NCBI RefSeq assembly: GCF_003334385.1
Contig: NZ_QOWN01000088.1
From: Escherichia coli
GTDB taxonomy: Bacteria; Pseudomonadota; Gammaproteobacteria; Enterobacterales; Enterobacteriaceae
Reading direction: 5' to 3' (one strand)
DNA length: 4,267 bases
Positions 3,139 to 3,349 of the stretch are shown piece by piece. The first letter of the stretch is position 1, and every line of letters starts with the position of its first letter. Made by a program: the position numbers and the translations under genes. A model generated the notes under the pieces. It ran no database searches and had not been told where the DNA came from. It saw only the letters and a list, made by a program, of their open reading frames with translations.

Positions 3139-3349
3139 AAGCATGTTTCTGGCGGTCATAGCTCTATCGGCAAAGCGATATTTGCCATGGCGCGTCACAG
3201 TTCTGTTGAATGGGTTAATGGGCAGGAGGGTAACACCAGATGGGGAGGAATAATAAGAAAAAATCTCTGCCAGGAAGCTATCGTTGAAAAGCAATGTGAC
3301 AGATATTCCATCTGATAAAAAGAATTATGGTTTAGCAGGAGCGCATTGT

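Follow-up and report, generated by a model that had tools for sequence, protein, structure and literature searches.

The coaA locus

The stretch of Escherichia coli DNA analysed here (contig NZ_QOWN01000088.1, 4,267 nucleotides, referred to below as the window and numbered from its first base) carries the gene order murB–birA–coaA(−)–thrU–tyrU–glyT–thrT–tufB, as shown by its open reading frames, by the tRNA genes detected and by comparison with complete E. coli genomes. Across the 1421 bases tested (2100–3520) it has 100% identity to several complete E. coli strains, and adding 4,171,888 to a window coordinate gives the corresponding coordinate in K-12 MG1655 (NC_000913.3), where coaA occupies 4174076..4175026. 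coaA encodes pantothenate kinase, the enzyme that determines how fast coenzyme A is made. Its 316 residues are identical to those of PDB entries 1ESM/1ESN and of RefSeq WP_000023081.1/NP_418405.1, and with 480.2 bits against the NCBIfam model TIGR00554 (panK_bact), for which the cut-off is 235, it belongs to this family; the profile aligns to residues 9–316 only, so that the first 8 residues fall outside it. The features of the region are collected in Table 1.

Two further arrangements can be seen at the neighbouring gene borders. The murB stop and birA start overlap as ATGA (1194–1197), which is usual for translational coupling. Between the convergent birA and coaA genes lies a hairpin (2163–2182) flanked by the published 3′ ends of murB–birA (2184) and of coaA (2157), and with 3′ ends on either side it appears to be a bidirectional terminator (region 2157–2184).

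The coaA reading frame remains open upstream of the annotated start, and the first-pass annotation of this DNA, made from the sequence alone, had drawn attention to several possible start codons in it. The MSIKEQ start (ATG1), the in-frame ATGs at codons −2 and −7 and the downstream ATG at codon 9 (MTPYLQ, ATG9) are all borne out by translation, and ATG1 also by the RefSeq annotation. A further upstream ATG proposed in the same frame is in fact TTG, the plus strand reading CAA at that place. The extension is indeed stop-free, but it runs for 62 codons back to an in-frame TAA, the 52 codons originally given being the count from the TTG only.

Table 1. Features of the coaA region, in window coordinates
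Feature	Position	Strand	Basis or remark
coaA CDS, long form (316 aa + stop), type I pantothenate kinase	2188..3138	−	RefSeq, two E. coli records
ATG9, second in-frame start (MTPYLQ), used in vivo, 308-aa form	3112..3114	−	peptide MTPYLQFDR, residues 9–17
AAGAG, codons K4–E5, 9 nt before ATG9	3124..3128	−	not a functional-strength Shine–Dalgarno (−2.1 kcal/mol)
ATG1, annotated start (MSIKEQ), used in vivo	3136..3138	−	N-terminal peptide, residues 2–17
5′ untranslated leader of coaA, 81 nt, stop-free over 27 in-frame codons	3139..3219	−	mapped TSS
ATG at codon −2, ATGCTTATG, in the 5′ UTR	3142..3144	−	no sign of use in E. coli
ACA of the reported MazF cut, overlapping the A of ATG(−2)	3144..3146	−	position read from the sequence
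ATG at codon −7, in the 5′ UTR, within predicted structure	3157..3159	−	unpaired probability 0.03
Transcription start site (TSS) of coaA, base A (A in 79/80 species)	3219	−	SMRT-Cappable-seq
Putative core promoter: extended −10 TGT-TACCCT (3235..3227), discriminator CCTGCCC (3226..3220)	3220..3235	−	sequence set against the mapped TSS
Candidate 15-codon ORF: AGGAGG (3224–3229), N10, ATG at 3240	3224..3287	+	overlaps the coaA promoter
Invariant T-rich element TTTTTTCTTATTATTC, −44..−29, −35 region	3248..3263	−	poor TTGACA match
TTG, first possible start codon after the stop	3292..3294	−	CAA on the plus strand; 75 nt upstream of the TSS
In-frame TAA bounding the stop-free stretch	3325..3327	−	frame translation

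Transcription start and leader

The start of coaA transcription has been mapped by SMRT-Cappable-seq, a method which captures triphosphorylated 5′ ends at single-base resolution (PMC6131387). In Supplementary Data 1 of that study, b3974 is covered by a single reverse-strand primary transcript, with its TSS at 4175107 (56 reads) and its 3′ end at 4174045, corresponding to window positions 3219 and 2157. As a check on the table, the TSS that it gives for the thrU operon falls at window 3492, 7 nt after a TAGAAT hexamer (3480–3485). The coaA position comes from one dataset and a single row of its table, and minor upstream starts in other conditions are possible; among the rows listed from the TSS tables of PMC4782308 and PMC3415461, none matches the coaA TSS coordinates.

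A transcript beginning at 3219 lacks the TTG and codons −28 to −62, about half of the upstream extension, which leaves ATG(−7) and ATG(−2) as the sole possible upstream in-frame AUG starts. The leader itself folds no better than shuffled sequences (z = −0.88), and the best match in an Rfam search of 3000–3520 reached 16.5 bits against a gathering score of 60.4. It also contains a 10-codon out-of-frame uORF (3156–3188, minus strand, AUG at 3188) without a Shine–Dalgarno sequence, the UGA of which overlaps AUG(−7) as AUGA. A uORF coupled to ATG1 through an ATGA overlap was considered as well and rejected, the frame that ends at that TGA having no start codon.

A conserved block, the probable promoter

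Conservation in the intergenic region is highest in a block of about 50 bp (3213–3263, minus strand), which is present in all 80 of the Enterobacteriaceae species, from about 30 genera, whose coaA loci were compared. It consists of TTTTTTCTTATTATTC, 5–7 variable bases and then ATCTGGTGTTA(C/A)CCTCCTGCCCATTGT, and spans −44 to +7 of the mapped TSS, of which −44..−29 and −22..+7 are invariant. In E. coli genomes the block is single-copy and hence not a repeat element.

Set against the mapped TSS, the block is probably the core promoter of coaA, and a weak one. A TG at −15/−14 precedes a hexamer that keeps −12T, −11A and −7T, as expected of an extended −10 element, and the published TSS lies 7 nt after T3227, within the spacing of 6–8 nt for such a start. 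TGTTA(C/A)CCT is found in 79/80 species and CCTGCCC, a G+C-rich discriminator, in 71/80. At the −35 region, TATTAT or TTATTA bears little resemblance to TTGACA. These assignments of individual bases to promoter elements are read from sequence and should be taken as putative. Conservation also covers the spacer (ATCTGG), the discriminator and the T-rich −44..−29 stretch, which is more than a promoter usually needs.

Several other elements suggested by sequence motifs were rejected. TATTAT (3255–3250) as a −10 hexamer is incompatible with the TSS at 3219, and its bases are not conserved outside close relatives; a CRP-like TGTGA-N6-TTCCA (3295–3310), which would stand at −61.5 of the TATTAT promoter, is ruled out in that role by the same TSS and by poor conservation. 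The CRP-like sequence, on the plus strand, is centred near −83.5 of the actual coaA TSS and is conserved in Escherichia and some Citrobacter only. Sigma-E-like (GGAATAT-N15-TCAAC) and sigma-32-like (CCCCATCT) sequences are both misfits with a start at 3219, and their matching bases are unconserved beyond close relatives. The promoter offered by a consensus scan, TCAACA-17-CATAAT (3352..3324), likewise does not fit the mapped TSS and is unconserved even within Escherichia. A GntR/FadR-type operator in the block (TGGT-N3-ACC) was considered as well; its ACC half varies between TTACC and TTAAC.

The conserved block is the only part of the region that may hide regulation so far unknown. It is unlikely that the block serves as the platform of an undescribed regulator of CoA synthesis, or that it holds a translated antisense mini-ORF which interferes with coaA transcription. 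Either reading, if true, would mean that coaA, whose regulation has been put down to feedback inhibition of the enzyme alone, is also controlled at transcription. One published regulator table gives no regulator for coaA.

Translation from two in-frame AUG codons

ATG1 and ATG9 lie in the same frame, 24 nt apart and both downstream of the TSS. An N-terminomics study (PMC13245402, Table S2, row 65) lists two coaA initiation sites, 4175026 (ATG, residues 2–17) and 4175002 (ATG, +8, peptide MTPYLQFDR, residues 9–17), which are window positions 3138 and 3114, and the published peptides match the window translation exactly. No upstream N-terminus of coaA occurs in this table, though a six-frame database was searched and upstream sites are reported for other genes; the data files examined from a Salmonella proteoform study contain no coaA entry. 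The PDB contains both a 316-residue chain (1ESM, 1ESN) and a 308-residue chain equivalent to residues 9–316 (1SQ5), and since both forms have been crystallised, both fold.

The two N-terminal peptides and the two crystallised chains uphold the statement in the first-pass annotation that E. coli makes two CoaA polypeptides by alternative initiation. Song and Jackowski (J Bacteriol, 1992) are said to have reported two CoaA polypeptides 8 N-terminal residues apart, together with their N-terminal sequences. Translation of coaA from two nearby in-frame AUGs is already known from the literature.

Neither of these codons shows initiation led by a Shine–Dalgarno sequence. Pairing with the 3′ end of 16S rRNA was tested 5–13 nt upstream, against a background of all 17-mers in the window (median −1.8, 10th percentile −5.3 kcal/mol). 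The upstream context of ATG1, CCGCCAGAAACATGCTT, gives a duplex of +0.2 kcal/mol, i.e. no pairing, as had been noted from inspection. The AAGAG 9 nt before ATG9 is present as described, but its likeness to a Shine–Dalgarno was overstated, the duplex of −2.1 kcal/mol being close to the background median. For comparison, the neighbouring genes birA and murB have duplexes of −6.4 and −4.3 kcal/mol, respectively.

When the mRNA is folded from its mapped 5′ end, the predicted unpaired probability is 0.80 for AUG1, 0.67 for AUG9, 0.32 for AUG(−2) and 0.03 for AUG(−7). Local minimum free energies (MFE) are −3.3 kcal/mol at ATG1, −4.4 at ATG9 and −11.1 at ATG(−7), which also lacks a Shine–Dalgarno, and among the four AUGs it is AUG1 that has the most A-rich (0.43) and least structured surroundings. 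In PMC13245402 the median local MFE is −5.1 at annotated starts and about −8.6 at random sites, and 192/806 mapped E. coli starts are without an SD-like motif, yet A-rich. Start choice in coaA may accordingly be governed by low structure and A-richness, independently of Shine–Dalgarno pairing, as the folding predictions suggest.

Conservation of the start codons

Codon 1 is ATG in 76/80 species. The exceptions are four Atlantibacter-type loci (L038–L040 and L032) with AAA at codon 1, in which ATG is kept at codons −2 and 9 and ATG(−2) is the only start-proximal upstream AUG; in these, CoaA must start either at ATG(−2) (MLKSNTEQ...) or at codon 9. Of the 80 species, 66 have ATG at codon 9 and the other 14 have ACG. 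Eight of these 14 (Buttiauxella, Franconibacter and one Enterobacter sp.) have an ATG at codon 7 instead, and a change from EQTLMT to EQMLTT at codons 7–9 is seen in loci L037, L046, L053, L068, L072, L076, L077 and L081. This exchange may be a swap which preserves a second in-frame AUG near the N-terminus, judging from the aligned codons. A second AUG is absent in the C. freundii group and in one Superficieibacter. With ATG9 in only 66 of the 80 species, the short form is common, not obligatory or universally required.

Upstream of the gene, 65/80 species have ATG at codon −2, 2 have GTG and 11 have AAG; ATG(−7) is not conserved.

The upstream extension is non-coding

A stop-free frame of this length is no more than chance gives. 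In 5000 dinucleotide-preserving shuffles of the 361-nt coaA–thrU spacer, the stop-free run next to ATG1 was at least 62 codons long in 5.3% and at least 52 codons long in 8.5%. The first-pass annotation had proposed examining codon positions in relatives, and the extension shows no periodicity there. Within Escherichia, the gene has 11/3/112 variable columns at codon positions 1/2/3 and the extension 3/7/5; in the comparison with Citrobacter and relatives the gene has 48/13/264 and the extension 24/21/21, and that alignment contains indels of 1, 13 and 21 nt in the extension, of which those of 1 and 13 nt break the frame. The frame is also interrupted in relatives: across the 80 species the stop-free run upstream of ATG1 is 2 to 83 codons long (median 10.5; 21 codons in E. 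albertii, 9–29 in Citrobacter), and 71/80 have an in-frame stop inside the predicted leader. Adding the 52 residues encoded from the TTG brings no gain in the match to the TIGR00554 profile.

A natural insertion bears on the same question. In E. coli strain 1442 (L083), a copy of ISEc52 (IS3 family) lies at window 3268/3269, about 50 bp upstream of the coaA TSS and in the same orientation as coaA, and splits the TTG from an intact coaA, so that only the −44..+1 promoter block stays attached to the gene. The insertion in this complete E. coli genome shows that the DNA upstream of 3268/3269, TTG included, is dispensable.

The upstream extension is non-coding: it consists of promoter and untranslated leader, and lacks a stop by chance. 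This is what the first-pass annotation had thought most likely, and the TSS lying inside the extension agrees with it. The doubt that the long upstream frame might code is thereby removed, and the start of transcription is placed within that frame.

Interpretation and alternatives

A weak promoter with its start at 3219, initiation at AUG1 and AUG9 without a Shine–Dalgarno, and a non-coding extension together very probably describe how this region works. On this reading transcription of coaA would start from an extended −10 promoter that is both weak and highly conserved, giving a leader of 81 nt, and ribosomes would initiate at codon 1 (3138) and codon 9 (3114) without a Shine–Dalgarno. Both AUGs would be reached in an A-rich, weakly structured stretch, yielding pantothenate kinase of 316 and 308 residues, while 3220–3324 would be promoter and upstream DNA outside the mRNA and the proximal 27 codons of the extension would be leader. 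The two N-termini and the TSS are taken from published experiments; the lack of a coding signature, the lack of a Shine–Dalgarno and the conservation of the block were computed here.

A weak promoter combined with starts that lack a Shine–Dalgarno fits the low abundance of pantothenate kinase. The first-pass annotation had likewise spoken of weak translation signals, which holds for both AUGs, and the promoter as read from sequence appears weak as well; overall its observations were confirmed in part, and its interpretation is supported on all three claims. The finding as such is already known, dual initiation and the transcription start both being in the literature, and it has little importance beyond annotation, the two-start arrangement being documented and both forms being folded enzymes. 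What the present analysis adds is the comparative picture of the two starts (ATG9 in 66/80 species, ATG1 in 76/80) and the demonstration that the extension is non-coding. What novelty remains is limited to the promoter block of coaA and ATG(−2), both of them unusually deeply conserved.

That ATG(−2) is so strongly conserved falls outside the two-start reading. This codon could be a third start, minor or conditional, giving MLMSIKEQ..., which would be compatible with initiation at AUG1 and AUG9; we consider it improbable for E. coli. In its favour, the mapped leader includes ATG(−2), 65/80 species retain ATGCTTATG and 2 more have GTG, and the Atlantibacter-type loci with AAA at codon 1 have kept ATG(−2). 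A role on processed mRNA might also be envisaged. According to Table 1 of a MazF study (PMC5001579), MazF cleaves coaA mRNA at an ACA lying 8 nt before the start codon, and because this ACA overlaps ATG(−2), a cut there would leave the AUG 1–2 nt from the new 5′ end of a nearly leaderless mRNA, on which ATG(−2) might be used. Against such a start, the six-frame study (PMC13245402) reports no upstream initiation site for coaA, the observed SIKEQ... N-terminus fits removal of Met after initiation at ATG1, and folding predicts a lower accessibility for AUG(−2) than for AUG1 (0.32 versus 0.80). Kosakonia and Phytobacter, moreover, carry AAG at codon −2, in several cases together with an in-frame TAA at codon −3.

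A second alternative concerns the other strand, where the conserved block might be kept partly because it encodes a translated mini-ORF antisense to the coaA promoter. The candidate has a near-perfect Shine–Dalgarno in unstructured surroundings, its duplex of −10.8 kcal/mol ranking under the first percentile of the window, and a start codon is found 10–11 nt after GGAGG in about 75/80 species, some via 1-nt shifts. Its length, however, ranges from 8 to >50 codons among relatives, 3–5 loci have no start codon, and the frame across the invariant AATAATAAGAAAAAAT differs between genera (NNKKK versus IIRKN), so that neither frame nor peptide is conserved. Its bases are also those of the −10 element, discriminator and spacer of the mapped coaA promoter. 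The PMC6131387 table contains no plus-strand primary transcript at the mini-ORF, from a library without RNAs under 1 kb, and a consensus scan gave no convincing plus-strand promoter for it. Plus-strand RNA folds no better than shuffles here (z = +0.19). No peptide of the mini-ORF was found, its tryptic peptides being too short to detect. Promoter function suffices to explain the conservation of the block, and a real mini-ORF is for this reason rated as quite improbable.

It is very unlikely, too, that ATG1 is the sole true start and that the short form is an artefact or a product of proteolysis between Leu8 and Met9. ATG9 is without a Shine–Dalgarno and has been lost in 14/80 species, and the Table S2 row for MTPYLQFDR in PMC13245402 carries no formylation status, such that a clip between Leu8 and Met9 is formally possible. 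Set against this, MTPYLQFDR retains at its N-terminus the Met encoded by an ATG codon, folding predicts an accessible AUG9 (unpaired probability 0.67), and an ATG has been gained at codon 7 in 8 of the 14 species that lost ATG9. The 1992 cloning paper of Song and Jackowski reportedly reached the same conclusion.

Finally, a longer CoaA (up to 368 aa from the TTG, or from another codon upstream of 3219), which would make the present annotation too short, can be dismissed: the 62-codon stop-free frame has a TTG of marginal Shine–Dalgarno pairing (−3.3 kcal/mol) and holds a very conserved block, but that TTG lies 75 nt upstream of the mapped TSS and is severed from coaA by ISEc52 in strain 1442, the block is invariant at all three codon positions, unlike coding evolution, the extension has no third-position bias (3/7/5), frame-breaking indels and a median open run of 10.5 codons, the 52 extra residues add nothing to the family match, and the PMC13245402 table has no upstream CoaA N-terminus.

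Comparison with known systems

The closest known system is the E. coli CoaA pair of long and short forms itself (TRAINSPOTTER table of Van Damme, PMC13245402), for which the locus and the two start codons are the same, with no difference. In the same table, infA and secB resemble coaA in having a second AUG exactly 8 codons downstream of the first. Like infB, which encodes IF2, coaA has two in-frame starts on one mRNA that give rise to nested proteins; the IF2 isoforms are known to differ in function, whereas the two CoaA forms have no known functional difference. By sequence and predicted folding, AUG1 and AUG9 of coaA also appear similar to other starts at which SD-independent initiation takes place in A-rich, unstructured surroundings. 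With regard to transcription, the putative coaA promoter resembles the extended −10 (TGn) sigma-70 promoters with a weak −35 region, having a TG one base before TACCCT and its +1 position 7 nt downstream of the hexamer. Compared with these promoters, the centre of the coaA hexamer (CCC or ACC) is unusual, and conservation extends over the spacer, the discriminator and −44..−29, beyond what such promoters need.
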